DNA from: Deltaproteobacteria bacterium | Lineage (GTDB): Bacteria > Desulfobacterota > Binatia > JACPRU01 | Assembly (NCBI GenBank): GCA_016189835.1 | Contig: JACPRU010000078.1 | Coordinates: 8,275 to 72,274 of the forward strand | Reading direction: 5' to 3' | Length of the DNA: 64,000 bases | Shown here: piece after piece, positions 6,644-45,951 of the stretch | Numbering within the stretch: the first letter of the stretch is position 1 | Layout of the letters: each line of letters starts with the position of its first letter | Program-made: the position numbers and the translations under genes | Notes under the pieces: model-generated | Database searches by the model: none | What the model was told of the DNA's origin: nothing | What the model saw: only the letters and a program-made list of their open reading frames with translations

Positions 6644-7432
6644 ATGGAATTCCAACAAGTCGTAGGCATCCGCAGGTCGATTCGTTACTTCGAGCCCGAC
6701 AAGCCGGTCGAGCAGGAGAAGATCCAGAAGATTCTCGAGGCCTGTCGCGTGGCCTCGTGCGCGGTCAACGCGCACTGGTTGAAGGCGGTGGTCGTGCGGC
6801 GCGACGACATCGCGCCCGCGGATCTGGAGAAGATGAAGAACCCGGTGCAGGCGAACGTGATCGCCCTCGCTCCGGTACACATCTACTTCTACGGCGATCC
6901 CGGAGTGGTCAACCAGATCAAGGGCTCGCGCCTGAAGCAGCTCCACGACGTCGGCGCGCTCAACCCCACCCACGGCTGGAGCCACAAGTTCGTCGACGAG
7001 GTCGTCTACCCGCAGATCCTGAAGCCGCTCACCGACAATCCGTTCTACCCGGTCGCGCTGGCCTTCGACTGCGGCGTCGCCGCGTGTCAGGGCGTCTTGA
7101 TGGCGTTCGACCAGGGCCTCGGCGCCTGCCTGACCGCGTTCGTCCCGGAGGTCGTCGCCAAGTACACCAAGGTGCCGGGCAACTGGATCCCGTTCTACCA
7201 GCTGAACGTCGGCTACCCCGCGGAGTCGCGCGAGGCCGGCGGCCAGCGGCCGCGCCCGCCGTTCGAGGAGCAGTACTTCCTGAACCAGTACGGCAGCTCC
7301 TTCCCGCGCGATCCCAAGGTCGTGAAGGAGCTCGAGGCTTCGGGCCTGTTCACTACCCCGGCGCGGCCCGACAACGCGGAACGGCGCAAGGAGATCCGCG
7401 ATCTCGCGCGCCGGCTCAACCTGCCGATGTGA
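6644..7432 (+). CDS. nitroreductase family protein
   Basis: ATG 6644 is preceded by GGAGGA. VVGIRRSIRYFEPDKPVEQEKIQKILEACRVASCAVN and GVAACQGVLMAFDQGLGAC are classic nitroreductase motifs. The upstream 22 codons of ORF 6578 are unlikely to be translated. Confidence 0.8.
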   Translation: MEFQQVVGIRRSIRYFEPDKPVEQEKIQKILEACRVASCAVNAHWLKAVVVRRDDIAPADLEKMKNPVQANVIALAPVHIYFYGDPGVVNQIKGSRLKQLHDVGALNPTHGWSHKFVDEVVYPQILKPLTDNPFYPVALAFDCGVAACQGVLMAFDQGLGACLTAFVPEVVAKYTKVPGNWIPFYQLNVGYPAESREAGGQRPRPPFEEQYFLNQYGSSFPRDPKVVKELEASGLFTTPARPDNAERRKEIRDLARRLNLPM

Positions 7433-37380: not shown

Positions 37381-38154
37381 TCAGCGGCCCTTCCACACGG
37401 GCTTGCGCTTGGCGGCGAACGCGCGTGGCCCCTCGACCGCATCCTCCGAGGCCCACAGGCGGGTCTCGGCCTCGAGGTGCGTGGCCATCGCTTCCTCGAC
37501 CGAGAGGTGGAGGCTCTGCATCGCCGCCTGCTTGCTCGCCTGAACCGAGAGCGGCGAGCACTCCAGGATCTCCCGCGCCCAGCGCTCGGCGGCGGGGAGC
37601 AGATCCTCGGCCGGCACCACCTCGTTCACCAGGCCGAGCCGCAGCGCTTCCTGGGCGCCGACGTGGCGGCCGGTCAGCATCATGCCCATGGCGACCTTCA
37701 GTGGAACGTGCCGCGGCAGGCGGTGCACGCCGCCGGCGCCGGCCATCAGGCCCACGCGCGGCTCGGGCACCCCGAAGCGCGCGTGCTCGGCGGCGACGAT
37801 CAGGTCGCAGGCGAGCGCGATCTCGAAGCCGCCGCCGAGCGCGAGGCCATTGACCGCCGCGATCAGCGGCTTGACCAGATCGAAGCGGCGGGTGATCGCG
37901 CCGAATCCGTTTTTGGGGAGCGTCGGCGCGCCGTGCGCGGCGGTCCACTTGAGATCGTTCCCCGCCGAGAACGCCTTGTCGCCCGCGCCGGTGACGATCG
38001 CGACCCAGGTCTCGGCGTCGGCGGCGAAATCGTCGAACACGCGGTCGAGCTCGTCGTGGCAGGGCGGATGCAGCGCGTTCATGACCTCCGGGCGGTTGAG
38101 GGTCACGTAGGCGATGCGGTCACGCTTCTCGTAGCGGATGAACTCGAGCTCCAT
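37381..38154 (-). CDS. enoyl-CoA hydratase/isomerase (crotonase) family protein
   Basis: 257 aa. VTLNRPEVMNAL, FSAGNDL and AAVNGLALGGGFEIALACD are present. Confidence 0.85.
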   Translation of the reverse strand: MELEFIRYEKRDRIAYVTLNRPEVMNALHPPCHDELDRVFDDFAADAETWVAIVTGAGDKAFSAGNDLKWTAAHGAPTLPKNGFGAITRRFDLVKPLIAAVNGLALGGGFEIALACDLIVAAEHARFGVPEPRVGLMAGAGGVHRLPRHVPLKVAMGMMLTGRHVGAQEALRLGLVNEVVPAEDLLPAAERWAREILECSPLSVQASKQAAMQSLHLSVEEAMATHLEAETRLWASEDAVEGPRAFAAKRKPVWKGR

Positions 38155-38181: not shown

Positions 38182-39342
38182 TCACAGCCCGGCGTCGTGG
38201 AGCAGCTTCTCTAGCACAATCTCGGCGCGGAAATAGCTCTCGGCGATGGCGCGCGCCGCGTGGCAATGGCGGCGGTAATCGGCGTCCACCGCCTCGATCG
38301 CGGCCGCCGCGTCCTCGATCCCGCGGAACGCGAACAGCCCCTCGCCGGTCGGATAGAGCCGCGAGAACCCGGTGTCCTGCACCACCACCGGCTTGCCCAT
38401 CGCCAGGTAACAGGCGCTGCGGCAGCTGAACCAGCCGCTCGCGGTCGCCACGTAGGCTTCCTTGGCGACGCTCCACTCCGCGCGCGAGGCGGCGATGTAG
38501 TCGCGGTAGCGCTCCATGGTCGTCGAGCGCTCCGCGGCGTCGACGACGTGCCAGCCGTGCGCCGCCATCTCCTCCCTCGGCGCGGGGCCGGAGACGGCGA
38601 TCTCGAGCGGCGGCCGCACGCGCCCCGGCAGCGCCGCGAAGCGGCGGAACTCGACGTCCTTGGCGCCGTACACGCGGCCGCCGAGCACGGGCAGTGCGGG
38701 CTTGGTCTTCCACGACATCACGGTCGTGAAGCTCCGCGCCGCGGGGTCGAACCTCGCCGGCCAGTCCTCGAGCGTGATCGGCTGCCGCGTGGTCTTCCAC
38801 TCGACGCCGCAGCGCGGCACCCGGCACGACGCGTCGTTCATGTTCTCGCCCATCGTGAAGTAGGCGTCGTAGCTCCGGTAGGCACCGGGCCGGCTCTGCT
38901 GCGAGCGGTCGCCGGTCTCGGCCGCGAGCCACGCCGCCTGCGTGTACAACGGGTCGCTGTCGTAGCAGGCGAGAACGCGCGCGCCGCGGTAGCCGTCGCG
39001 CAGCCAGGCGGAGTCCGAGACGTTGAGGAACAGCTCCGCGCTCCGGCAGCGCGCGGCGATCTCCTGCTCGGACAGGCCGTGCAGCGTGCCGCGCGGGTCG
39101 CGGTACGCGAACGAATCGGCCATGCCGGGAACGCGGGACAACACGTCGCGCAGATGCCGCAGATTGTCGGCGGCCTCCTCCGTGAACGTGCCGAGGCGCG
39201 GGTTGTAGGCCCACTGCCCGGTGTCCTCGAGATACGTCACGCGACAGCCGAGCGCGACGAACCCCTTGACGAATTGCAGATAGTCCCAGGCCACGCCGCC
39301 GAGCGGGTAGGCGCCGATCAGCCCGGTGACGACGACCTGCAC
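38182..39342 (-). CDS. CgeB-like / Glyco_trans_1_2-type putative glycosyltransferase, paralogue B
   Basis: 386 aa. GTG 39342 shares one base with the upstream TAG (TAGTG). The C-terminus GWFSCRSACYLAMGKPVVVQDTGF...GEGLFAFRGIEDAAAAIEAV resembles the CgeB-type GT C-domain. It aligns by eye along its full length with the upstream gene. Confidence 0.6.
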   Translation of the reverse strand: MQVVVTGLIGAYPLGGVAWDYLQFVKGFVALGCRVTYLEDTGQWAYNPRLGTFTEEAADNLRHLRDVLSRVPGMADSFAYRDPRGTLHGLSEQEIAARCRSAELFLNVSDSAWLRDGYRGARVLACYDSDPLYTQAAWLAAETGDRSQQSRPGAYRSYDAYFTMGENMNDASCRVPRCGVEWKTTRQPITLEDWPARFDPAARSFTTVMSWKTKPALPVLGGRVYGAKDVEFRRFAALPGRVRPPLEIAVSGPAPREEMAAHGWHVVDAAERSTTMERYRDYIAASRAEWSVAKEAYVATASGWFSCRSACYLAMGKPVVVQDTGFSRLYPTGEGLFAFRGIEDAAAAIEAVDADYRRHCHAARAIAESYFRAEIVLEKLLHDAGL

Positions 39343-40493
39343 TACAACCCCGCCGCCTCGAGCATCGGGCCGAGCACGCGGACCGCCTCGAAGCTCTCGC
39401 GGGCGATCGCCCGGGCGGCCGCCGAGTGCGCGGCGTGGTCGGCGGCGACCGCGCGCACCGCGGCCACCGCTTCTTCCAGGCTCCGCACCGCGAATAGGCC
39501 CCGCCCGGTGGGGATCACGTCGCCGAAGCCGGTGTCCTGCAGCACCACCGGCCGTCCGGCGGCGAGGTAGCAGACGCTGCGGTCGCTGAACCAGCCGCTG
39601 CGCAGTCGCACGTTCATGTCCTTGGCCGCCGTGAACTCGCCCTTCGATTCCTGGATGTAGCGACGGTAGGTCTCGAAATCCATCGACACCTCGAGCGGCG
39701 GGCGGATCGCCCATCCCGCCGCGCGCAGCGCGCGCTCGTCCTGCGGCGCGCTCTGCACGTCCATCGCCAGCTCGAAGCGCTCGCCGCTGCGTCGCGGCAG
39801 GTCGAGGAACTTCCGCCACTCGAGGCTCTTGCGCCAATCATAACGCTCGCCGCGGAACTCCAGGTCGCGGCCGCTGGCGTCCCACTTGCCGATGGTGGTG
39901 AACGGCGCGTCGGCCGGTGTCCGCGAGCTTTCCCAGAAGTCGGTCACCACCGCGGGACGGCTCGGCCGCCAGGCGTATCCGCCGGTCGGCAGCGGGCTGC
40001 GCGGCGTGCCGACGTTCTCTCCGTAGGTGAAGAACAGGTTGTGATCGTCGAGCAGCTCGCGCCGTCCGGCGTCTCCCGCCGCGAGCTGGATCTGGGTGAA
40101 CGCCGGGTCGATGTCGAGGTAGATGCGCGCGGGCGGCAGCGGGCGATCGCCCAGCCGGTTGACGCCGGCGACGTTCAGGAACAGATCGGCCTCGGCGAAC
40201 AGCCGGCGCGTTCCCTCGGCCGAGAGCCCGTGATGGCGGTTGAGCGCCGCGTCCCAGAACACCCAGCGGCCGGCGAAACCGAAGCGCCCGAGGACCTCGC
40301 CGAGCCGCCGCACCCCGTACTCGTAGTCGAAGCCCGTGTCGCCGCTCAGCGGATCGTAGGCGTGCGGGTAGTACGCCGAGTCCTCGTAGAAGTACGCGTC
40401 GCAGCCGAGCCGGGCGAGACCGATCAGATAGTGCAGGGTCTGCCAGACGTACCCGCCGACCGGAAAGCGAACGAAATAGCCGGCGACGATCAC
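39342..40493 (-). CDS. CgeB-like / Glyco_trans_1_2-type putative glycosyltransferase, paralogue A
   Basis: 383 aa from GTG 40493 (the tail of ORF 39342..42281). Blocks shared with the downstream paralogue include FLNV, F(F/T)(Y/M)GEN, GWFSDRSVCYLAAGRPVVLQDTGF and RGLFAVRSLEEAVAAV. Confidence 0.6.
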   Translation of the reverse strand: MIVAGYFVRFPVGGYVWQTLHYLIGLARLGCDAYFYEDSAYYPHAYDPLSGDTGFDYEYGVRRLGEVLGRFGFAGRWVFWDAALNRHHGLSAEGTRRLFAEADLFLNVAGVNRLGDRPLPPARIYLDIDPAFTQIQLAAGDAGRRELLDDHNLFFTYGENVGTPRSPLPTGGYAWRPSRPAVVTDFWESSRTPADAPFTTIGKWDASGRDLEFRGERYDWRKSLEWRKFLDLPRRSGERFELAMDVQSAPQDERALRAAGWAIRPPLEVSMDFETYRRYIQESKGEFTAAKDMNVRLRSGWFSDRSVCYLAAGRPVVLQDTGFGDVIPTGRGLFAVRSLEEAVAAVRAVAADHAAHSAAARAIARESFEAVRVLGPMLEAAGL

Positions 40494-40516
40494 GCGCGGT
40501 CGACGCGCCACGCTCC

Positions 40517-42331
40517 TCACTCCGCCAGCGCCGGCAGCCCGCCGTCCTTCTCGCCGGCCTGCAGCCGGACCAGGCGCGCGAACCATCCCTGTCGCGCGAC
40601 GAGGTCCGCGTAGCGACCCTGCTCGACGACCCGTCCGTCGCGCACCACCACGATCGAGTCCGCGTCGCGCACGGTGGAGAGCCGGTGGGCGATGATGAAG
40701 ATCGTCCGGCCTTCCCGCAGCGTCCTCAGGCCGGCGACGAGCAACGCCTCGGTCTCGGCGTCCAGCGAGGCGGTCGGCTCGTCGAGAATCAGGATCGGCG
40801 CGTCGCGCAGCAGCGCCCGGGCGATCGTCAGCCGCTGCCGCTCGCCCTCGGACAGCGTGGCGCCGCCCTCGCCGATCTGCGTCTCCAGGCCCCGCGGCAG
40901 CCGCGCCAGGAACGGAGCGAGCTGCGCCAGCTCGGCCGCCCGCTCGATCTCGGCGGGCGAGGCGCCCGGCCGCCCGTAGGCGATGTTCTCGCGAACCGTC
41001 GCCGCGAACACGATCGGCGGCTGCAGCACCATGGCGATCCGGCCGCGCAGCGAGGCGAGCTGGAACTCGCGCAGGTCGCGGCCGTCGAGCAGCACCCGGC
41101 CGGCGCGCGGATCGTAGAAGCGCGGCAGCAGGCTGACGATCGTCGTCTTGCCGGCGCCGGTCGGACCCACCAGCGCCACCGACCCGCCGGCCGGCGCGAC
41201 GAACGAGACGTTCGACAGCACCGCTCGCCGGCCGTCGTAGGAGAAGCCGACGTCCTCGAAGCGCACCTCGCCGCGCAAGGCGCGCCGATCGAGGACGACC
41301 GGCCCGCTGTTCACCACCTCGGGAGCCTCGAGGATCTCGAACACCCGCCAGATGCCGGCCTTCGCTCCCTGGATCGTCCCGTAGGTCTGGCTGACCGCGC
41401 TCACCGGCGCGTACAGCGCGGCCACGTAGCCGAGGAAGACCAGCACGTCGCCGACGCTCATGTCGCCGGAGAGCACTCGCCAGGCGCCGAGCCACAGCAC
41501 CAGGCCGGTCCCGGCCGCGATCAGCGTGTTGACGACGCCGCCGTAGGCCGTCTGCACGAGGTAGAGGCGGCGGTTGGCGAGCAGGCTCGCCGAGCTCTGG
41601 TCGAGGAAGCGACGATGCTCGGCCTGCTCCTGGGTGAACGCCTGTACGACGCGGATCGCCGACAGGCCGTTCTGAACGATCGAGTACATGCCGCTCTCGA
41701 GCTCGCGCGCCGAGACCGACACGTCGCTGATGCGCCCACTCATGCGCCGGATCGCCGCATAGAGCACCGGACAGACGCCGAGCGCGACCAGCGTCAGCAC
41801 CCAGTCGAGGCGCGCCAGAACGACGGTCATGCCGCCGAGGAACATCGCCGCGCTGACGATCGGGAAGACGCCGTTCATGGTCAGCGTCTGCACCGCGTAC
41901 GTGTCGGCGGTCAGGCGATAGAGCAGGTCGCCGACCTGCCGGTTGGCGTGAAACGTGAGCGACAGCCGCTGCAGGTGCTGGTAGAGGTCGCTGCGCAGAT
42001 CGTTCACCATCCGCTGGCCGATGGTGATCGTCGTGCGGTTGTTCCAGTAGGAGAAGGCGCCGAGCAGGGCCTGCAACACCACCAGCGAGAACGCGCAGGC
42101 GGCCAGCATCGCCGGCTTGCCGAGTCCCGGGTCCAATCCGAGCGGCAGCGGCCGGTCGCCGAGCACGCTGTCGACGACGATCTTCAGCGGCCAGGGCCGC
42201 AGCAGATCGAAGACGCTCATGAAGAACACCTGCGCGAGCGCCAGCGCGAACGGCACGCGGTAGGGGCGCAGGTACTGCCACAGCCGCCTCGCCAGCGGCG
42301 GCCGGGCCGCCGTTTGCCGCGGGTCGCTCAC
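40517..42331 (-). CDS. ABC exporter, fused transmembrane and ATP-binding domains (MsbA/type I exporter-like)
   Basis: 604 aa. GTG 42331 overlaps the upstream TGA (GTGA). Six-TM N-domain, Walker A GPTGAGKTT, signature LSEGERQR and Walker B ILILDEPT are present. Confidence 0.85.
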   Translation of the reverse strand: MSDPRQTAARPPLARRLWQYLRPYRVPFALALAQVFFMSVFDLLRPWPLKIVVDSVLGDRPLPLGLDPGLGKPAMLAACAFSLVVLQALLGAFSYWNNRTTITIGQRMVNDLRSDLYQHLQRLSLTFHANRQVGDLLYRLTADTYAVQTLTMNGVFPIVSAAMFLGGMTVVLARLDWVLTLVALGVCPVLYAAIRRMSGRISDVSVSARELESGMYSIVQNGLSAIRVVQAFTQEQAEHRRFLDQSSASLLANRRLYLVQTAYGGVVNTLIAAGTGLVLWLGAWRVLSGDMSVGDVLVFLGYVAALYAPVSAVSQTYGTIQGAKAGIWRVFEILEAPEVVNSGPVVLDRRALRGEVRFEDVGFSYDGRRAVLSNVSFVAPAGGSVALVGPTGAGKTTIVSLLPRFYDPRAGRVLLDGRDLREFQLASLRGRIAMVLQPPIVFAATVRENIAYGRPGASPAEIERAAELAQLAPFLARLPRGLETQIGEGGATLSEGERQRLTIARALLRDAPILILDEPTASLDAETEALLVAGLRTLREGRTIFIIAHRLSTVRDADSIVVVRDGRVVEQGRYADLVARQGWFARLVRLQAGEKDGGLPALAE

Positions 42332-44880
42332 GCGCGCTTTCCAGGGGGAAACAGGTTCAGTTGCCGGGCGACGATCTCCAGGACGTCGTGCAGGATCTGG
42401 CCGAGGCGGTAGTTCTTGTAGAGCAGCAGACAGAGGTTCACGGCGCCGAGCGCGATCGCGAACTCGACCATCTCGCGCACCGAGAACAGCACCCCGGCGA
42501 CCACCAGCAGCGCGCAGGCGCCGAGCGTCAGCTTGGCGACGCCGGTCAGCCGCTGGCGGCACCGCACGCGCAGCAAGCGCTTGTTGCCGCCGTGGTTCTC
42601 CACCGCCACGGCGATCTCCGAGCGCGTGAACGCGCCGCGGTGGACCTCGATGTCCCAGTCGTTCCAACCGCGGTCGACGTCGATCAGGTACTTGCGGGGC
42701 AACAGGAAATCCATCAGGCCCTGGATGAGCCCCTCCTTCTCCATCGCCGCGTCGTTCCAGTAGCCGAGCCGGAACTCGGTGGCGAGCCAGCCCTGCGGGC
42801 GCTGGCGCGGCTCGGCGAAGCGCATCGGTTCGACGTCGGCGAGGCCGCGCAGCCGCCACTTGTAGCGCTCGTAGGAGCGCAGCAGCGGCCCGAGATAGAT
42901 GAGCAGCGCGAGCAGCGAGCGGCTCTGCCAGTCGTCGTAGCGCGGGTCGAGCCGGCGCGAGGAGGCGAGGGCCACGGCCGAGGCCCAGGAGATCGCCAGC
43001 GGCACGAACGCCGGAACCACGTAGCGTCCCGAGACCATCGCGCACAGGCCCAAGAACAGCGACACCGCGGCCCACTCGAGCGTGAAGGGGAGATACGACA
43101 GCAGCGAGCTGGGCGGCTCGTAGAGCGTCTGGAAGAGCCCTCGCCCGAAGGCGCCGTAGTAGATCACCGGCCGGCGCGACAGGAGCCCCGCCGGCGACTC
43201 ACCGTAGATGCGCCCGAGCCAGCGTGACTGGCCGAGCATGTTGAAGCGGTAGGGATGCTTGAAGTAGAGCAGCGCCTCGGCCTTGCCGTAGCCCCGCTGC
43301 TGGCGAAGATACGCGCCGACCGTGTTGCGCCGGAAGTGCCACACCATCGCCGCCGGGCTGAAGCCGATCTGCAGCCCGCGGTTCTGCAGGCGCCAGCACA
43401 GATCGACGTCGTCTCCGGCGGCGGTGAACACCGGATCGAAGCACTGGACCGCCTGCAACGCGTCGCGGCGGAACGCCATGTTGCAGCCCGGGATGTGCTC
43501 GGCCACGTCGTCGTTCACCAGCACGTGGGTCGGCCCGCCGGGGGCGACCGCGACGCACGCCGGCACGCGCAAATCCTCGGGCGGCGGCAGGTTCGGGCCG
43601 CCGGCGGCGACCCAGCCGTGGCGGACCATGGCGCCGATCAAGTACGTCAGCCAGTCGGGGTCGACCACGCAGTCCGAATCGGTGAACACGACGTACTCGC
43701 CGGTGGCGGCCCCGATCCCGACGTTGCGCGCCGTCGACAGCCCCCGGTTCTCCTGGTGGATGACCCGGAAGGGAAAGCGCCTGGCGATCTGCGCCGTCGC
43801 GTCCTTCGAGCCGTCGTCGACGACGATCACCTCGAAGTTCGGGTAGCGCAGCTGCAGCAGCGACTGCAGGCAGGCCTCCATGGTCGCTTCCGCGTCGTAG
43901 GCGCAGATCACCACCGAAGCCTTCGGCGGCGCGGCCAGCGGCGGCGGCAGCGCCCCGCCGTACAGATCGCGCACCGCGTAGTAGGCGGGCTTCGGCGTGC
44001 GCTCGCGAGTCACCAGGCCGAACGCCCAATCGCCGATCGCCGATCCGCCGGTGAACCATTCGTCCGTCCACGAGAACACGAACGTGCCAGCGGCTCCGCC
44101 CTCGAACGCCGCGCGGATCTGCCACGCCAGGACCTCGGCTTGCCGGCCGGCGCCTTCGCGGATCGAATCGATGCCGAACTCGGTCAGCACCAGCGGCTTG
44201 TCCTCGGCGAGGTTCTGCAGCCGCGACAGGTAGCGGCGAAACGCTTCCTCGCGGTGCAGGTAGACGTTGAAGCAGATGAAGTCCACGCAATCGACGTCGA
44301 GGTACTCCGTGGACGGGAAGTTGGCGTAGCTCACCAGCGCTTGCGGATCGATCTCGCGCACGTCCTGCGCCAGAGCGCTCAGGAAATCGCGCACGCGCCC
44401 CGGGCCGCACCAGCGCACCACGTCGGGCGGGATCTCGTTGCCGATCAGGTAGGCGAGAATCGCCGGATGGCCGGCGACGCCGCGCACGCCGTCGCGCACC
44501 AGCCGGTGGTTCGACTCGACGACCTCGGGGGCGTCCAGGAAGCACGTGTGCTGGGTCCAGGCGAGGCCGACCAGCACCCACAAGCCGTGCTCGGCGGCGA
44601 GATCGAGCAGCCAGCGCGGCGGCGGCGTGAACGTGCGCAGCGTGTTGGCGCCGAGGTCGCGGATGGCGGCGAAATCGCGCGCCGCCTGGTCCGGCCCGGG
44701 GAACGGCGTGCCGTCCGCTCCGGCCGCGAACGGGCCGTAAGTGACGCCGCGAACGAACACCTTTTCGCCGTTGTGGAAGAAGAACTTGCCGGCGACCCGA
44801 GGCCTGCCGGAGCGCGCCGCCCCGGGGGACTCCGAGACGGCCGCCGAGCGGGCTACGACCGCGAGATTCGCCTTCGCCAT
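42328..44880 (-). CDS. fusion protein: N-terminal TIM-barrel glycoside hydrolase domain + GT2 glycosyltransferase + C-terminal membrane region
   Basis: 850 aa. The GH part has LIGNEIP (acid/base NE) and LVLTEFG (nucleophile E). The GT2 part has VIVVDDGS, FTDSDC, AAGDDVDLCWRL and LRQQRGYG. Several hydrophobic helices follow after residue ~620. Confidence 0.8.
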   Translation of the reverse strand: MAKANLAVVARSAAVSESPGAARSGRPRVAGKFFFHNGEKVFVRGVTYGPFAAGADGTPFPGPDQAARDFAAIRDLGANTLRTFTPPPRWLLDLAAEHGLWVLVGLAWTQHTCFLDAPEVVESNHRLVRDGVRGVAGHPAILAYLIGNEIPPDVVRWCGPGRVRDFLSALAQDVREIDPQALVSYANFPSTEYLDVDCVDFICFNVYLHREEAFRRYLSRLQNLAEDKPLVLTEFGIDSIREGAGRQAEVLAWQIRAAFEGGAAGTFVFSWTDEWFTGGSAIGDWAFGLVTRERTPKPAYYAVRDLYGGALPPPLAAPPKASVVICAYDAEATMEACLQSLLQLRYPNFEVIVVDDGSKDATAQIARRFPFRVIHQENRGLSTARNVGIGAATGEYVVFTDSDCVVDPDWLTYLIGAMVRHGWVAAGGPNLPPPEDLRVPACVAVAPGGPTHVLVNDDVAEHIPGCNMAFRRDALQAVQCFDPVFTAAGDDVDLCWRLQNRGLQIGFSPAAMVWHFRRNTVGAYLRQQRGYGKAEALLYFKHPYRFNMLGQSRWLGRIYGESPAGLLSRRPVIYYGAFGRGLFQTLYEPPSSLLSYLPFTLEWAAVSLFLGLCAMVSGRYVVPAFVPLAISWASAVALASSRRLDPRYDDWQSRSLLALLIYLGPLLRSYERYKWRLRGLADVEPMRFAEPRQRPQGWLATEFRLGYWNDAAMEKEGLIQGLMDFLLPRKYLIDVDRGWNDWDIEVHRGAFTRSEIAVAVENHGGNKRLLRVRCRQRLTGVAKLTLGACALLVVAGVLFSVREMVEFAIALGAVNLCLLLYKNYRLGQILHDVLEIVARQLNLFPPGKRA

Positions 44881-45027
44881 CGCTCAAGATCGATTCGCAA
44901 TCGCGGTCATCGACGAGGCCGCTCAATCTACCAGACAGGGGTGGGGGTTCAAGCCGCGGCCGTGGGCGGCGCTGGCGCGTGGGACGCCGCGGTTGAACGG
45001 CGGCTTGCGATCTGTGAAGAAGGTGCC

Positions 45028-45420
45028 ATGGCGTTCCTCCATGCCAGGCACTTCACGCTGGAGGAGGCCCGAGTCGCGCTCGCCGAGGTCGGGCCGCTCA
45101 GCGAAGAGCTCGTCAACCTCAAGGAGACGCTCGACCGCTGGGGCTACGACGTTCGCCGCCATGGCTACTTCGGGGGCGCCGGGCCGAACGGCGAGAGCTA
45201 CTTCCCGCCCGAGCTCGAACGGCTGGTCGAGGTGCTGCGCCATCTCGAGGCGATCGGCGTCGTCGTCAAGGGCATCGACCACGGGCTGGTCGATTTCCCG
45301 CACGTGCGCCGCGGCGGCGAGGAAGTCTACCTGTGCTTTCGCGCCGGCGAAACCGACGTCGCCTACTGGCACTCGATCGACGAAGGCTTCGCCGGCCGCC
45401 GGCCGATCTCGGAGCTGTGA
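45028..45420 (+). CDS. DUF2203-family protein
   Basis: 130 aa from ATG 45028. HFTLEEARVAL...VVKGIDHGLVDFPHVRRGGEEVYLCFRAGETDVAYWHSIDEGFAGRRPI matches the DUF2203 pattern from memory. Confidence 0.65.
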   Translation: MAFLHARHFTLEEARVALAEVGPLSEELVNLKETLDRWGYDVRRHGYFGGAGPNGESYFPPELERLVEVLRHLEAIGVVVKGIDHGLVDFPHVRRGGEEVYLCFRAGETDVAYWHSIDEGFAGRRPISEL

Positions 45421-45421
45421 G

Positions 45422-45823
45422 GTGCCCACCGTCCGCTCGCTCGACCACCTCGTGCTGCGCGTCGGCGACCTCGACCGTTCGCTCGCGTTCTACCGGGGCC
45501 TGCTCGGTCTCGCCGTCGAGGGTCTCGAGGAGCACCGTCGTGGCGCCCGGCCGTTCGTCTCGCTGCGCGTCGGCGAGGCGCTGCTCGACCTCGTTCCCGA
45601 CCCGGCCCACGATCCGGCGACCGCCGCGTCCGGCGGGCTCCTGCACTTCTGCGTGACGCTCGCCGATCTCGGCGAAGCGATTCGCGAGCTGCGCGCCGCC
45701 GGCGTGGCGTTCCTGCACGACGCGCCGGTGCCGCGCGCCGGCGCCCGCGGCGTCGCACCGTCGATCTACGTGCGAGACCCCGACGGCTACGTCGTCGAGC
45801 TCAAGCAGGCGACGGACGCCTAG
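45422..45823 (+). CDS. VOC/glyoxalase-family protein
   Basis: 133 aa. GTG 45422 lies 1 nt after the upstream stop. LDHLVLRVGDLDRSLAFYRGLLGL and YVRDPDGYVVEL are glyoxalase-fold motifs. Confidence 0.75.
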   Translation: MPTVRSLDHLVLRVGDLDRSLAFYRGLLGLAVEGLEEHRRGARPFVSLRVGEALLDLVPDPAHDPATAASGGLLHFCVTLADLGEAIRELRAAGVAFLHDAPVPRAGARGVAPSIYVRDPDGYVVELKQATDA

Positions 45824-45864: not shown

Positions 45865-45951
45865 TGCCGGGGGTGGGATTCGAACCCACATATCCCTCTC
45901 GGGACACAAGGTTTTAAGCCTCGCGCGTCTCGCCAGTTGCGCCACCCCGGC
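45865..45951 (-). tRNA. tRNA-Leu (anticodon UAA), type II with long variable arm; CCA not encoded
   Basis: The reverse complement is GCCGGGGTGGCGCAACTGGCGAGACGCGCGAGGCTTAAAACCTTGTGTCCCGAGAGGGATATGTGGGTTCGAATCCCACCCCCGGCA. Acceptor stem GCCGGGG/CCCCGGC, anticodon stem CGAGG/CCTTG with loop CTTAAAA, variable stem TCCC/GGGA, and T-arm GTGGG-TTCGAAT-CCCAC. Confidence 0.9.

Follow-up and report, generated by a model that had tools for sequence, protein, structure and literature searches.

A candidate system for making and exporting a beta-linked glycan, built from a GH-GT2 membrane fusion, an ABC exporter and GT-B-fold partners

Four consecutive minus-strand genes within a 64,000-nucleotide stretch of Deltaproteobacteria DNA (the window) encode a GH-GT2-membrane fusion protein, an ABC exporter and two paralogues, here called ParA and ParB. 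With modest confidence, we propose that they represent a widespread three-component system for cytoplasmic synthesis, sizing or remodelling of a beta-linked glycan and for export of the product. This system is probably an undescribed route to exported glycans. The original prediction for this DNA also had the genes making and trimming a glycan, which is a plausible function.

Gene layout and domains of the fusion protein

The gene coordinates and junctions given in the original prediction were all borne out when the four genes were re-read. The genes, the domains of the fusion and the upstream region are as follows.

38182..39342, minus strand: ParB (P0004), 386 aa, clade B (paralogy to ParA, tree)
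39342..40511, minus strand: ParA (P0003), 389 aa, GT-B fold, clade A (AF2, Foldseek, tree)
40517..42331, minus strand: ABCB-type (type IV) half-transporter exporter (P0002), 604 aa (ABC_membrane and ABC_tran, Pfam)
42328..44880, minus strand: GH-GT2-membrane fusion (P0001), 850 aa (open frame, no internal stops)
43945..44799, minus strand: N-terminal clan GH-A (beta/alpha)8 barrel of the fusion, aa 28-312 (Pfam; profile and Foldseek matches to LaGH157)
43246..43926, minus strand: GT2 (GT-A) domain, aa 319-545 (PF00535, motifs, PDB relatives)
43090..43245, minus strand: near-invariant linker, aa 546-597 (invariant alignment columns; pattern FKHPYRFN.LGQSRW.GRIYG...GRGLFQTLYEPPSS)
42955..43089, minus strand: first TM hairpin, aa 598-642 (alignment-averaged hydropathy, K/R distribution; AF2 helices 601-617 and 626-641)
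42547..42930, minus strand: basic amphipathic helix (aa 651-681), then a conserved alpha/beta domain (aa ~700-778) (AF2 secondary structure, invariant columns)
42412..42543, minus strand: second TM hairpin, aa 780-823 (hydropathy; AF2 helices 780-799 and 802-840)
44881..45027, no strand: divergent intergenic region, 147 bp (read from sequence)

The fusion TGA (42330-42328) overlaps the ABC GTG (42331-42329) in a GTGA at 42331-42328, and the ParA TAG (39344-39342) overlaps the ParB GTG (39342-39340) in a TAGTG junction. The ABC start codon is uncertain across the first ~13 codons, with homologue alignments beginning only at about residue 13. The 147-bp intergenic region is presumably the site of the operon promoter. 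It contains a weak candidate, TTGAAC-N16-TAGATT at 44952-44925 on the minus strand (8 of 12 matches), which a consensus promoter scan did not flag, and no Rfam element was found there.

The N-terminal part of the fusion had been described as a TIM-barrel glycosidase with NE and TEFG catalytic motifs. Pfam recovers the barrel (GH2_C TIM barrel, aa 29-254, E 2e-11), and the generic label can be replaced by a closer one. The nearest solved structure is the endo-beta-1,3-glucanase LaGH157 (9fz9/9g4n/9g5g), which is matched with E 5.7e-15 (single sequence), E 2.2e-19 (profile) and E 3e-12 (Foldseek) at an identity to GH157 of only ~22%, and the next-best matches are GH2 beta-glucuronidases and galacturonidases. 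This ranking suggests a domain nearer to GH157 beta-1,3-glucanases than to a generic glycosidase, with GH2 following. The catalytic pair is intact: the putative acid/base E149 (NE, 148-149) and putative nucleophile E234 (TEFG, 233-236) are invariant, as is N148, in a 25-sequence alignment (58-89% identity), and E234 lines up with the nucleophile position that is altered in the E224A entry of LaGH157 (9g4n). No signal peptide was found on the fusion.

The adjoining GT2 domain (PF00535 at aa 322-475, 122.9 bits, E 1.7e-35, Pfam) carries every motif that had been read from it, namely DDGS (355-358), DSD (401-403), GDDVD (489-493) and QQRGYG (527-532), and the key residues D356, D401/D403, D490/D491/D493 and Q527/Q528 are invariant in the same 25 sequences. 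The QxxRW motif of processive synthases is replaced by QQRGY, in which Q527, Q528, G530 and Y531 are invariant and position 529 is R or M. The best NCBIfam match of the domain is MftF (171 bits, below the cut-off of 280), and its PDB relatives include chondroitin synthase, GalT1 and WrtF. Inverting GT2 enzymes form beta-linkages and the substrates of clan GH-A enzymes are beta-glycosides, and thus the two domains together give an internally consistent beta-glycan reading.

Topology analysis, with an AF2 check, finds helices in the C-terminal region, as expected from its earlier description as multi-helix, but only four are predicted to span the membrane, as two hairpins, and an alpha/beta domain lies between these. 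The outer loops are short and K/R-poor and the flanks are K/R-rich, and in this model all soluble domains of the fusion appear to be on the cytoplasmic side. Because it has two TM hairpins only, the fusion is without an obvious channel of its own. The full-length AF2 model is moderate (pLDDT 73) and leaves the most conserved linker unmodelled, so that a channel built by fusion oligomers or jointly with the ABC transmembrane domains is conceivable. This linker (pLDDT 25-35), which has no Pfam match, possibly forms membrane-interface helices or an exporter-docking surface. The module at aa 651-778, also without a Pfam match, occurs almost exclusively at the C-terminus of ~830-930-aa proteins, and its alpha/beta domain, predicted to be cytoplasmic, has the pattern EKE...LPRK...GW..D...ENHGG.KR.

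Exporter, Par proteins and genomic linkage

PDB relatives of the ABC protein are ABCB1, TM287/288, Sav1866 and MsbA. It scores 435 bits against the NCBIfam MsbA model (cut-off 602), 377 bits against the glucan-exporter model NF010178 (cut-off 733) and 291 bits against a second such model, TIGR01192 (cut-off 585), and it also matches the NCBIfam PglK model far below cut-off. These similarities point to a generic ABCB-type exporter, whose cargo is not readable from sequence. The original terms ‘lipid-flippase-like’ and ‘glycolipid’ have no basis beyond this generic ABCB/MsbA similarity and are not retained here; the four-gene cluster contains no priming phosphoglycosyltransferase or lipid-related gene.

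ParA and ParB had been recognized as ~385-aa paralogues, and they are related end to end (37% identity over full length, E 7e-60). The CgeB/Glyco_trans_1_2-like C-domain attributed to both is below threshold at the level of sequence: ParA scores 19 bits against PF13524 (cut-off 25) and exceeds threshold for no family in Pfam, NCBIfam or PDB profile searches, and ParB has no match in Pfam and NCBIfam. The implied GT-B fold, however, stands. The AF2 model of ParA is of high quality (pLDDT 96, pTM 0.94), and the top Foldseek matches of the Par proteins are GT-B glycosyltransferases throughout, of the retaining GT4 type (E 5e-10 to 1e-6), with a Foldseek probability of 1.0 and TM 0.5-0.63 for tll1591, BGluT, GlgM, HepE, BshA and PimA. 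The Par proteins can confidently be modelled as having a GT-B, GT4-like fold, and only from this fold do we infer catalysis. Like retaining GT4-type GT-B enzymes, both have the two-Rossmann-domain fold and an N-terminal P-x-G-G loop; unlike them, they have no evident canonical EX7E motif and no significant sequence match to solved or curated glycosyltransferases, the best PDB profile match (E 0.24) being non-catalytic GtfB. The family comprises four ancient clades, with ParA in clade A (100% SH-aLRT) and ParB in clade B (98% SH-aLRT). Thus, the two represent separate ancient clades rather than the recent duplicates implied by the phrase ‘duplicated accessory transferases’.

Full-length relatives of the fusion number more than 7000 (~60% identity) and come from at least 597 species genomes in several phyla, mostly uncultured bacteria, and no characterised member was found among them. 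The co-occurrence data support the original view of the genes as a unit. In 71 of 74 informative loci, defined as those of the 80 surveyed with enough sequence, the gene immediately after the fusion encodes the ABC protein, and because identical gene order recurs across dozens of independent loci, the arrangement is far beyond chance. Par genes are present at 34 loci in one to four copies. In a sample of 151 genomes of the phylum, seven carry the fusion (one copy is cut by a contig end), and Par is found in six of these and in none of the other 144. When unlinked cases are included, 15 of 16 fusion-bearing genomes have Par. The Par family is a core partner of the fusion/ABC system. In Verrucomicrobiia, the adjacent ABC gene is absent at three loci, and the only genome searched among these (G162) is also without Par.

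The genes flanking the system vary between lineages, and the enoyl-CoA hydratase gene downstream of the present locus is not conserved among loci. At 26 alphaproteobacterial loci, a co-oriented galE immediately precedes the system, and ugd and a UXS-like gene are close by; the galE and ugd neighbours argue against a pure glucan. A SAM methyltransferase gene lies inside the cluster at 5 to 7 loci. OpgG is also encoded in 5 of 19 genomes that carry the system, and therefore a role purely as a stand-in for OPG synthesis does not fit. The mismatch to classical layouts noted in the original prediction also holds, as all NCBIfam equivalog scores for the four proteins are below cut-off, the set contains no Wzx/Wzy, Wzm/Wzt or Bcs/Pel/Pga components, and a literature search for a characterised pathway matching the set found nothing.

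Proposed mechanism and rival readings

In the proposed mechanism, the GT2 domain would act as an inverting GT-A enzyme on the cytoplasmic face of the inner membrane, where it would join hexose units from a UDP-sugar into a beta-linked chain. Glc and/or Gal would be the hexose, and the relatives of the GH domain make a beta-1,3-type linkage the most reasonable guess. The leaderless GH157-like domain, with its Glu/Glu pair, would act in cis on the nascent chain by size-cutting, release or transglycosylation (branching or cyclisation). ParA and ParB, which are GT4-like and probably retaining, would add priming or decorating residues, and the product probably varies between lineages, which differ in their combination of the four Par clades. 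Finally, the ABCB-type exporter would carry the finished soluble (possibly lipid-linked) glycan across the inner membrane, as its strict linkage suggests.

It is possible, if unlikely, that the GT2 domain and Par proteins instead assemble a glycan on polyprenyl phosphate or another membrane lipid, which the ABCB protein flips as PglK or MsbA do, yielding an envelope glycolipid or a periplasmically transferred glycan, with the GH domain trimming or proofreading the lipid-linked chain. The fusion is membrane-anchored, and MsbA-type models give the ABC protein its highest scores, with PglK matched as well, but both scores are far under their cut-offs. Similarly, polyprenyl-phosphate glycosyltransferases (DPM synthase 5mlz, GtrB-like sll0501) are among the weaker matches of the GT2 domain, whereas the enzymes most similar to it use soluble acceptors or polymerise (MftF, EpsD, chondroitin synthase). 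A GT-C (PMT_2) gene does adjoin the Par genes at one locus (L001), in a block with methyltransferase and SmaI-type restriction endonuclease genes; this company, and a transposase in the equivalent position at L049, suggest that the block is a mobile insertion. None of the 80 loci has a priming phosphoglycosyltransferase, a ligase or a conserved GT-C gene. We regard as distinctly improbable a fusion that polymerises and extrudes its chain through its own TM region, like hyaluronan, cellulose and PNAG synthases, with the ABC protein as an auxiliary for primer or modifier export or for energising release. Glyco_trans_2_3 (PF13632) matches aa 396-614, the NCBIfam PgaC/IcaA model gives 102 bits, the D, DxD, DD, QQxxY pattern is similar to D,D,D,QxxRW, and interface helices could come from the conserved linker that follows the Q motif. 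Foldseek also aligns 460 columns to the Chlorella virus hyaluronan synthase, but with low TM-scores to HAS (0.24 and 0.39). Moreover, QQRGY stands in place of QxxRW, and the fusion has four predicted TM helices in two hairpins versus six or more in HAS and eight in BcsA. An extruded chain would be out of reach of the GH domain, from which the membrane would separate it, and near-obligate ABC linkage is not typical of such synthases.

Two further readings are given very little weight. If the GT2 domain placed a short beta-glycan on a non-carbohydrate aglycone, as MftF or SunS do, the ABC protein would secrete a glycoconjugate. Peptides and natural products are common cargo of ABCB-type exporters, and the mycofactocin glycosyltransferase MftF is the best NCBIfam match, with SunS listed too, yet the MftF score is under cut-off, the flanks are lineage-specific (including the non-conserved enoyl-CoA hydratase gene), and across the 80 loci no gene for a precursor peptide, a radical-SAM enzyme, an NRPS/PKS or another scaffold is a conserved neighbour of the system. 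The fusion and Par proteins might otherwise produce a polysaccharide that stays in the cytoplasm for storage or as a carrier, much like polymethylated polysaccharides, with the ABC protein only loosely related to this function. The catalytic domains are all predicted to be cytoplasmic, some clusters contain SAM methyltransferases, and the Par fold matches include the methylmannose-polysaccharide mannosyltransferase 7qsg. However, a purely cytoplasmic product would make the membrane anchor of the synthase needless, and the strictly adjacent, translationally coupled exporter (GTGA overlap; 71 of 74 loci) points to export.

Comparison with known systems

The proposed synthesis-and-export system has partial counterparts among characterised enzymes. 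GH157 enzymes (LaGH157 of Labilibaculum antarcticum; BcellWH2_01931) are closest to the GH domain in both sequence and fold and share its aligned NE and TEFG motifs. They form an endo-beta-1,3-glucanase family of secreted or surface catabolic laminarinases with additional C-terminal domains (PMC10229575). The GH domain of the fusion differs in being predicted cytoplasmic, joined to a synthase and as distant in sequence as noted above.

In the Nod-factor pathway, NodC is a membrane-anchored GT2 enzyme that makes a short cytoplasmic oligosaccharide, which partner enzymes modify and the ABC transporter NodIJ exports. The fusion matches the NCBIfam NodC model TIGR04242 with 39.7 bits, far below the cut-off of 550. 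NodC is without a hydrolase domain, NodIJ is of the ABC-2 rather than the ABCB type, and the NodC partners are a deacetylase and an acyltransferase rather than GT-B proteins.

The Cgs/Cgt system (ChvB/NdvB plus ChvA/NdvA) of Agrobacterium, Brucella and Sinorhizobium also combines glycosyltransferase and glycan-processing domains in one membrane-anchored chain. The soluble domains of Cgs are all cytoplasmic, and Cgs depends on the Cgt ABC exporter (PMC10901819). Passage of the finished glycan to a dedicated ABCB-type half-transporter is what we propose here, and the ABC protein matches the glucan-exporter models, though far below their cut-offs. In contrast, the domain families are unrelated: Cgs joins GT84, a cyclase and a GH94 phosphorylase in ~2800 aa with 6 TM helices, whereas the fusion joins a GH157/GH2-like barrel to GT2 in 850 aa with 4 TM helices, and Cgs/Cgt has no GT-B partner.

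NdvB, the pseudomonad ‘Orphan’ cyclic beta-1,3-glucan synthase (PA1163), is a GH17-GT2 fusion in which the GT2 domain is proposed to build a chain that the GH domain cleaves or cyclises (PMC10237404). It is likewise a single chain (~860 aa) with an N-terminal clan GH-A barrel, GT2 and TM helices, and its barrel, like that of the fusion, is related to beta-1,3-glucan-active enzymes. However, the GH17 domain of NdvB has a signal peptide, is modelled as periplasmic and is separated by channel-forming TM helices from a BcsA-like processive GT2 domain with QxxRW. The GH domain of the present fusion has no PF00332 (GH17) match in Pfam and directly adjoins the QQRGY-bearing GT2 domain in the cytoplasm. 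All TM helices of the present fusion lie towards its C-terminus, and a separate ABC exporter is a near-obligate partner. The logic of the proposed system resembles that of Cgs/Cgt and NdvB, but the system is a member of neither family.

The operon and its fusion protein

The minus strand of the window carries four open reading frames arranged head to tail, which encode a fusion of GH, GT2 and membrane parts, an ABC half-transporter and two paralogous proteins (ParA and ParB, whose whole family is called Par here). The gene junctions named in the original prediction are present, with GTGA joining the fusion and ABC genes at 42331-42328 and TAGTG joining the paralogues at 39344-39340, and an 8-nt gap separates the ABC stop from the ParA start.

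Features of the operon and its flanks
42328-44880, minus strand: P0001, the fusion, 850 aa, open reading frame
40517-42331, minus strand: P0002, the ABC half-transporter, 604 aa, open reading frame
39342-40511, minus strand: P0003, ParA, 389 aa, open reading frame
38182-39342, minus strand: P0004, ParB, 386 aa, open reading frame
37381-38154, minus strand: DpgD/EchA19-like enoyl-CoA hydratase (331 bits, below the cut-off of 400)
45028-45420, plus strand: 130-aa open reading frame, divergent from the operon, without a match in an NCBIfam search
about 45440-45823, plus strand: glyoxalase/bleomycin-resistance-family gene, divergent from the operon
45865-45951, minus strand: tRNA, beyond the glyoxalase-family gene

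A 147-bp spacer separates the operon from the divergent plus-strand genes. An Rfam scan found no riboswitch upstream of the operon, the tRNA being its sole match, and a promoter and terminator scan of the locus gave no signal above background. The enoyl-CoA hydratase gene starts 27 nt past the ParB stop with its own Shine-Dalgarno sequence (GGGGAGGA) and may be co-transcribed with the operon; it was rejected as a fifth gene of the system because it is absent from the conserved neighbours of 80 related loci. The closest relatives of the window, which has a G+C content of roughly 70%, are Candidatus Binatia MAGs, and the source genome is itself a MAG of 2.6 Mb in 87 contigs that is about 75% complete.

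Pfam places a GT2 domain at residues 322-475 of the fusion. PF00535 scores 122.9 bits against a cut-off of 23.3 and the DSD at 401-403 is invariant, which places the domain in CAZy GT2. Of the motifs on which this assignment was originally made, DDGS, DSD and GDDVD are kept, with their key residues invariant in a 25-sequence alignment. At the site of QxxRW in processive synthases the fusion carries QQRGY, with either R or M at position 529 in its relatives. This sequence, together with only four predicted TM helices, all C-terminal, sets the fusion apart from processive GT2 synthases of the BcsA/PgaC/HAS type, which are defined by Q(Q/R)xRW and a channel of at least six TM helices around the GT domain; the PgaC_IcaA model gives 102 bits against a cut-off of 422.

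The N-terminal part of the fusion contains a TIM barrel that Pfam recognizes as GH2_C (residues 29-254; PF02836, 43.9 bits, cut-off 21). The barrel begins at about residue 28, and the N-terminal sugar-binding and Ig-like domains of GH2 (PF02837 and PF00703) are not matched, which rules out full GH2 membership. Instead, the nearest solved structures are 9fz9, 9g4n and 9g5g, with E values of 5.7e-15 for the single sequence and 2.2e-19 for the family profile. A literature search under PDB codes 9FZ9, 9G5G and 9G4N found nothing, and the enzyme is identified here from its Foldseek description as LaGH157, a GH157 enzyme crystallized with laminaribiose and laminaritriose. GH157 is a family of endo-beta-1,3-glucanases (PMC10229575). 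The next PDB relatives are GH2 beta-galacturonidases and glucuronidases, followed by GH158 and GH72 beta-1,3-glucan enzymes.

Alignment by phmmer pairs TEFG (E234) of the fusion with TEFG in wild-type LaGH157 (9fz9) and with TAFG in the E224A entry (9g4n), and pairs GNE (E149) with INE. All 25 aligned relatives, at 58-89% identity, share N148, E149 and E234, so the NE and TEFG catalytic pairs seen originally are borne out. The domain is GH157-like, being a clan GH-A barrel with a putative acid/base Glu (in NE) and a putative nucleophile Glu aligned to E224 of LaGH157, at an identity of only about 22%. Membership in the NdvB-type GH17-GT2 proteins is ruled out because PF00332 (GH17) is absent from the Pfam matches of the fusion and its N-terminus lacks a hydrophobic leader. 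When the window's own genome was searched with PF00332 for an NdvB yardstick, nothing matched; the result is uninformative, because the control genomes also gave no match.

The last 320 or so residues of the fusion match no family in Pfam at E values up to 10, and the same is true for the alpha/beta domain of about 110 aa within them.

Segments of the C-terminal module of the fusion
aa 546-597: linker, nearly invariant, which AF2 fails to model
aa 598-642: TM hairpin 1
aa 651-681: basic amphipathic helix
aa about 700-778: small alpha/beta domain
aa 780-823: TM hairpin 2

The original prediction had left topology and structure to be predicted, and the predictions give four TM helices in two hairpins. 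The outer loops of these hairpins are short (8 and 5 residues) and K/R-poor, their flanks are K/R-rich and no signal peptide was found in the protein; together these features point to a cytoplasmic location for the GH, GT2 and alpha/beta domains alike. A PilZ-like c-di-GMP domain, considered on account of an RxxxR after the helix, was dropped when no match supported it. Elsewhere, the C-terminal module is found at the end of proteins of about 830-930 aa (near-full-length matches; 866 clusters at 50% identity), and many of its shorter matches are probably gene fragments.

The exporter and the Par proteins

P0002 is a half-transporter in which a TMD (PF00664, 139.7 bits) is fused to an NBD (PF00005, 105.1 bits), as in type IV (ABCB-like) exporters, and its PDB relatives are the generic ABCB-type proteins ABCB1, TM287/288, Sav1866 and MsbA. 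The original description of an MsbA-like exporter therefore stands as regards the ABCB-type half-transporter and fails as regards the family: the MsbA models TIGR02203 and NF008381 give 435.5 and 353.6 bits against curated cut-offs of 602 and 867, which places the protein outside the MsbA lipid A flippase family. Scores of 376.6 and 291.3 bits against cut-offs of 733 and 585 (NF010178 and TIGR01192) likewise place it outside the glucan exporters NdvA/ChvA/Cgt.

ParA and ParB are 37% identical, have no Pfam or NCBIfam match above threshold and belong to a family that sources label 'hypothetical protein'. Their proposed resemblance to CgeB/Glyco_trans_1_2 (PF13524) falls below the gathering threshold of 25 bits (ParA, 19 bits, E = 1.5e-3; ParB, no match), and what remains of it is the fold. 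The AF2 model, based on an alignment of 34 sequences (pLDDT 96, pTM 0.94), contains two Rossmann-like domains with an inter-domain cleft, and all 50 listed Foldseek matches are GT-B glycosyltransferases, with E values down to 4.6e-10. The top fold relatives are mostly of the retaining GT4 type (tll1591, BGluT, GlgM, HepE, BshA and PimA; E = 5e-10 to 1e-6, TM 0.5-0.63). Thus, the modelled Par fold is shown to be GT-B, and we infer from it that the proteins act as glycosyltransferases. A search of PDB sequences with the Par profile gave nothing significant (best E = 0.24, GtfB), and so provides no sequence-level anchor for catalytic residues. Residues E292, K297, R311 and K228 are invariant; EX7E spacing is not evident by eye, and no GT4 sequence alignment was obtainable.

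A maximum-likelihood tree of 82 Par family members resolves four well-supported clades (A-D), with ParA in clade A and ParB in clade B. Binatia-type loci typically carry Par triplets in the order C-B-A or B-D-A. The window has clades A and B only, and the rest of its incomplete genome holds no further copy. All alphaproteobacterial copies in the tree (4 genomes) fall in clade C, and so does the one linked Par gene in each of two Methylomirabilota loci. One related locus (L009, 5993-8376) shows a recent local duplication, with a second copy of the 3′ end of the ABC gene (6704-7192) between two near-identical clade-C copies of zero branch length in the tree.

Distribution and linkage of the three components

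Relatives of the fusion form more than 7000 protein clusters, and the 120 best matches are for the most part full length, with identities of 59% or more. At least 597 species-representative genomes carry the fusion. Almost all of them are MAGs, and among them are Binatia, 'delta-proteobacterial' bins, Stellaceae and other Alphaproteobacteria, Methylomirabilota/Rokubacteria, Desulfobacterota, Planctomycetota and Verrucomicrobiota. Annotation calls the proteins of the system no more than 'glycosyltransferase' or 'hypothetical protein'.

In 71 of the 74 loci with enough sequence the next gene downstream of the fusion is the ABC gene, the three exceptions all being Verrucomicrobiia, and 34 of 80 loci continue with one to four Par genes. 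Among 151 genomes drawn evenly from the window's phylum, seven carry the fusion (one copy is cut by a contig end), and Par is present in six of these seven versus none of the 144 others. Taken naively, this co-occurrence has a hypergeometric p of about 5e-10, although three of the six carriers belong to one genus and the effective sample is smaller. Par is also present in 15 of 16 fusion-bearing genomes reached through the loci; these 15 include all ten alphaproteobacterial genomes tested, which have one or two copies away from the fusion. The co-occurrence of the genes in other genomes, posed originally as a check, is therefore borne out: because Par tracks the fusion genome-wide, even when unlinked, fusion, ABC and Par behave as one system.

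Neighbouring genes vary among lineages. In 26 alphaproteobacterial loci, galE (TIGR01179, 430 bits) lies directly upstream of the fusion gene on the same strand (for example, L022, 4335-7897), and genes for UDP-glucose 6-dehydrogenase (ugd) and a UXS/ArnA-like dehydratase diverge from galE in alphaproteobacterial loci, a hint that the system of this lineage draws on galactose and/or uronic acid or pentose sugars. An SAM methyltransferase gene is found inside the cluster in five to seven loci.

Genes of about 245 aa between ABC and Par in related loci
L042: 12297-13028
L078: 8243-8986
L055: 7540-8274
L070: 12372-13115
L069: 6490-7218
L037: 13797-14585
L001: 14409-15152

Those scanned (L042, L078 and L001) encode SAM-dependent methyltransferases, which suggests O-methylation of the glycan in some lineages. 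Two loci have gaps of 5-6 kb between ABC and Par (L001, 12288-18475; L049, 12351-17795). The L049 gap holds a DDE transposase, and the L001 gap has genes for a methyltransferase, a PMT_2 GT-C protein and an SmaI-type endonuclease; both look like insertions of mobile DNA that interrupt the operon. The PMT_2 gene was rejected as a component of the system, given its block of methyltransferase and SmaI-type endonuclease and the transposase in the same position in L049.

Several loci depart from the usual pattern. The Verrucomicrobiia fusions (L077, 10614-12940; L076; L079) are 45-50% identical and have no ABC gene beside them; two Par genes lie on the strand opposite to the fusion in L077, and none was found in the genome that holds L079. 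This version may be a divergent or degenerate system. In L015, L022, L046, L058, L059, L070 and L073, which come from several MAGs, mostly long-read, the GH-GT2 or ABC matches are split into two frames or truncated, reflecting either frameshift errors or pseudogenes. Five bins labelled as Klebsiella pneumoniae, Enterobacteriaceae or Rhizobium MAGs (L008, L014, L024, L034 and L074) carry a high-identity locus of Binatia or Alphaproteobacteria type, and their taxon labels look wrong.

Proposed mechanism and known systems

Inverting GT2 enzymes convert UDP-alpha-sugars into beta-linkages, and clan GH-A consists of retaining enzymes active on beta-glycosides. In the predicted topology, GH and GT2 domains share one chain and one membrane face. 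The two TM hairpins offer the synthase no evident channel, and a translationally coupled ABCB exporter gene almost always accompanies it. The most economical model has four steps, in which the GT2 domain would synthesize a beta-linked glycan in the cytoplasm, the GH domain would cut, release or transglycosylate it in cis, the GT-B Par partners would decorate or prime it and the ABCB exporter would drive it out with ATP. Similarity to GH157, GH158 and GH72 points to beta-1,3-glucan as the putative product; similarity to GH2 and the neighbouring galE and ugd genes suggest instead that it contains galactose or uronic acid. OpgG occurs in 5 of 19 carrier genomes and is absent from the window's genome; its coexistence with the system led us to reject a strict substitute for OPG synthesis. 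A more specific version is put forward tentatively, as one possibility: a new multi-phylum route to periplasmic or secreted beta-glycans, perhaps cyclic or size-defined and OPG-like, whose chain would be polymerized and then cut or cyclized wholly in the cytoplasm by the GH157-like/GT2 protein, decorated by a variable set of enzymes of a new GT-B family and exported by a dedicated ABCB transporter. The C-terminal module of about 320 residues (linker, two TM hairpins and alpha/beta domain) might then serve as a docking or gating device that passes the glycan to the exporter.

Among the alternatives, the strongest is a lipid-linked route in which the ABC protein would act as a flippase; it is unlikely, as both a priming transferase and a conserved GT-C gene are absent. 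Neither the conserved neighbours of the 80 loci nor the window flanks contain a priming phosphoglycosyltransferase, Wzx/Wzy or an ABC-2 transporter, which agrees with the original statement that the operon matches no Wzx/Wzy or ABC-O-antigen layout. A processive synthase that translocates its own product is harder still to credit, given a membrane part of just four helices, an altered Q motif and a GH domain that is predicted to be cytoplasmic. That the glycan is purely intracellular seems very improbable. Glycosylation of a small molecule in the manner of MftF, whose model (TIGR03965) is the top curated match of the fusion, is equally far-fetched: the score of 171 bits is under the cut-off of 280 and mft genes are not found in the window flanks or the 80 loci, which places the fusion outside the mycofactocin glycosyltransferases.

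We found no characterized GH-GT2/ABC system, nor a description of its members, in the searchable literature. The components all come from known superfamilies and the general logic has precedents; what is noteworthy is how broadly the system is distributed, with high abundance in uncultured lineages of soil and sediment, how strictly its three components co-occur, and that two of its sizeable modules have no family (Par and the C-terminal module of the synthase). The co-occurrence provides a clean, testable definition for genome annotation, and the system would assign a function to a large GT-B family that lacks a Pfam model. The cytoplasmic beta-1,3-glucanase-like domain on the synthase may be a transglycosylase or cyclase of use for oligosaccharide synthesis.

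If an exported glycan is made, the system would join the Wzx/Wzy, ABC-2 and synthase-dependent pathways as a further option, nearest in spirit to Cgs/Cgt. All domains of Cgs are cytoplasmic and the ABC transporter Cgt carries its product out (PMC10901819), a logic that the window system resembles. NdvB, like the window fusion, joins a GH domain (GH17) and GT2 in one protein, which has been proposed to synthesize and cyclize beta-1,3-glucan (PMC10237404). Both precedents nevertheless differ from the window system in domain families, topology and curated scores, which rule out membership in either family.
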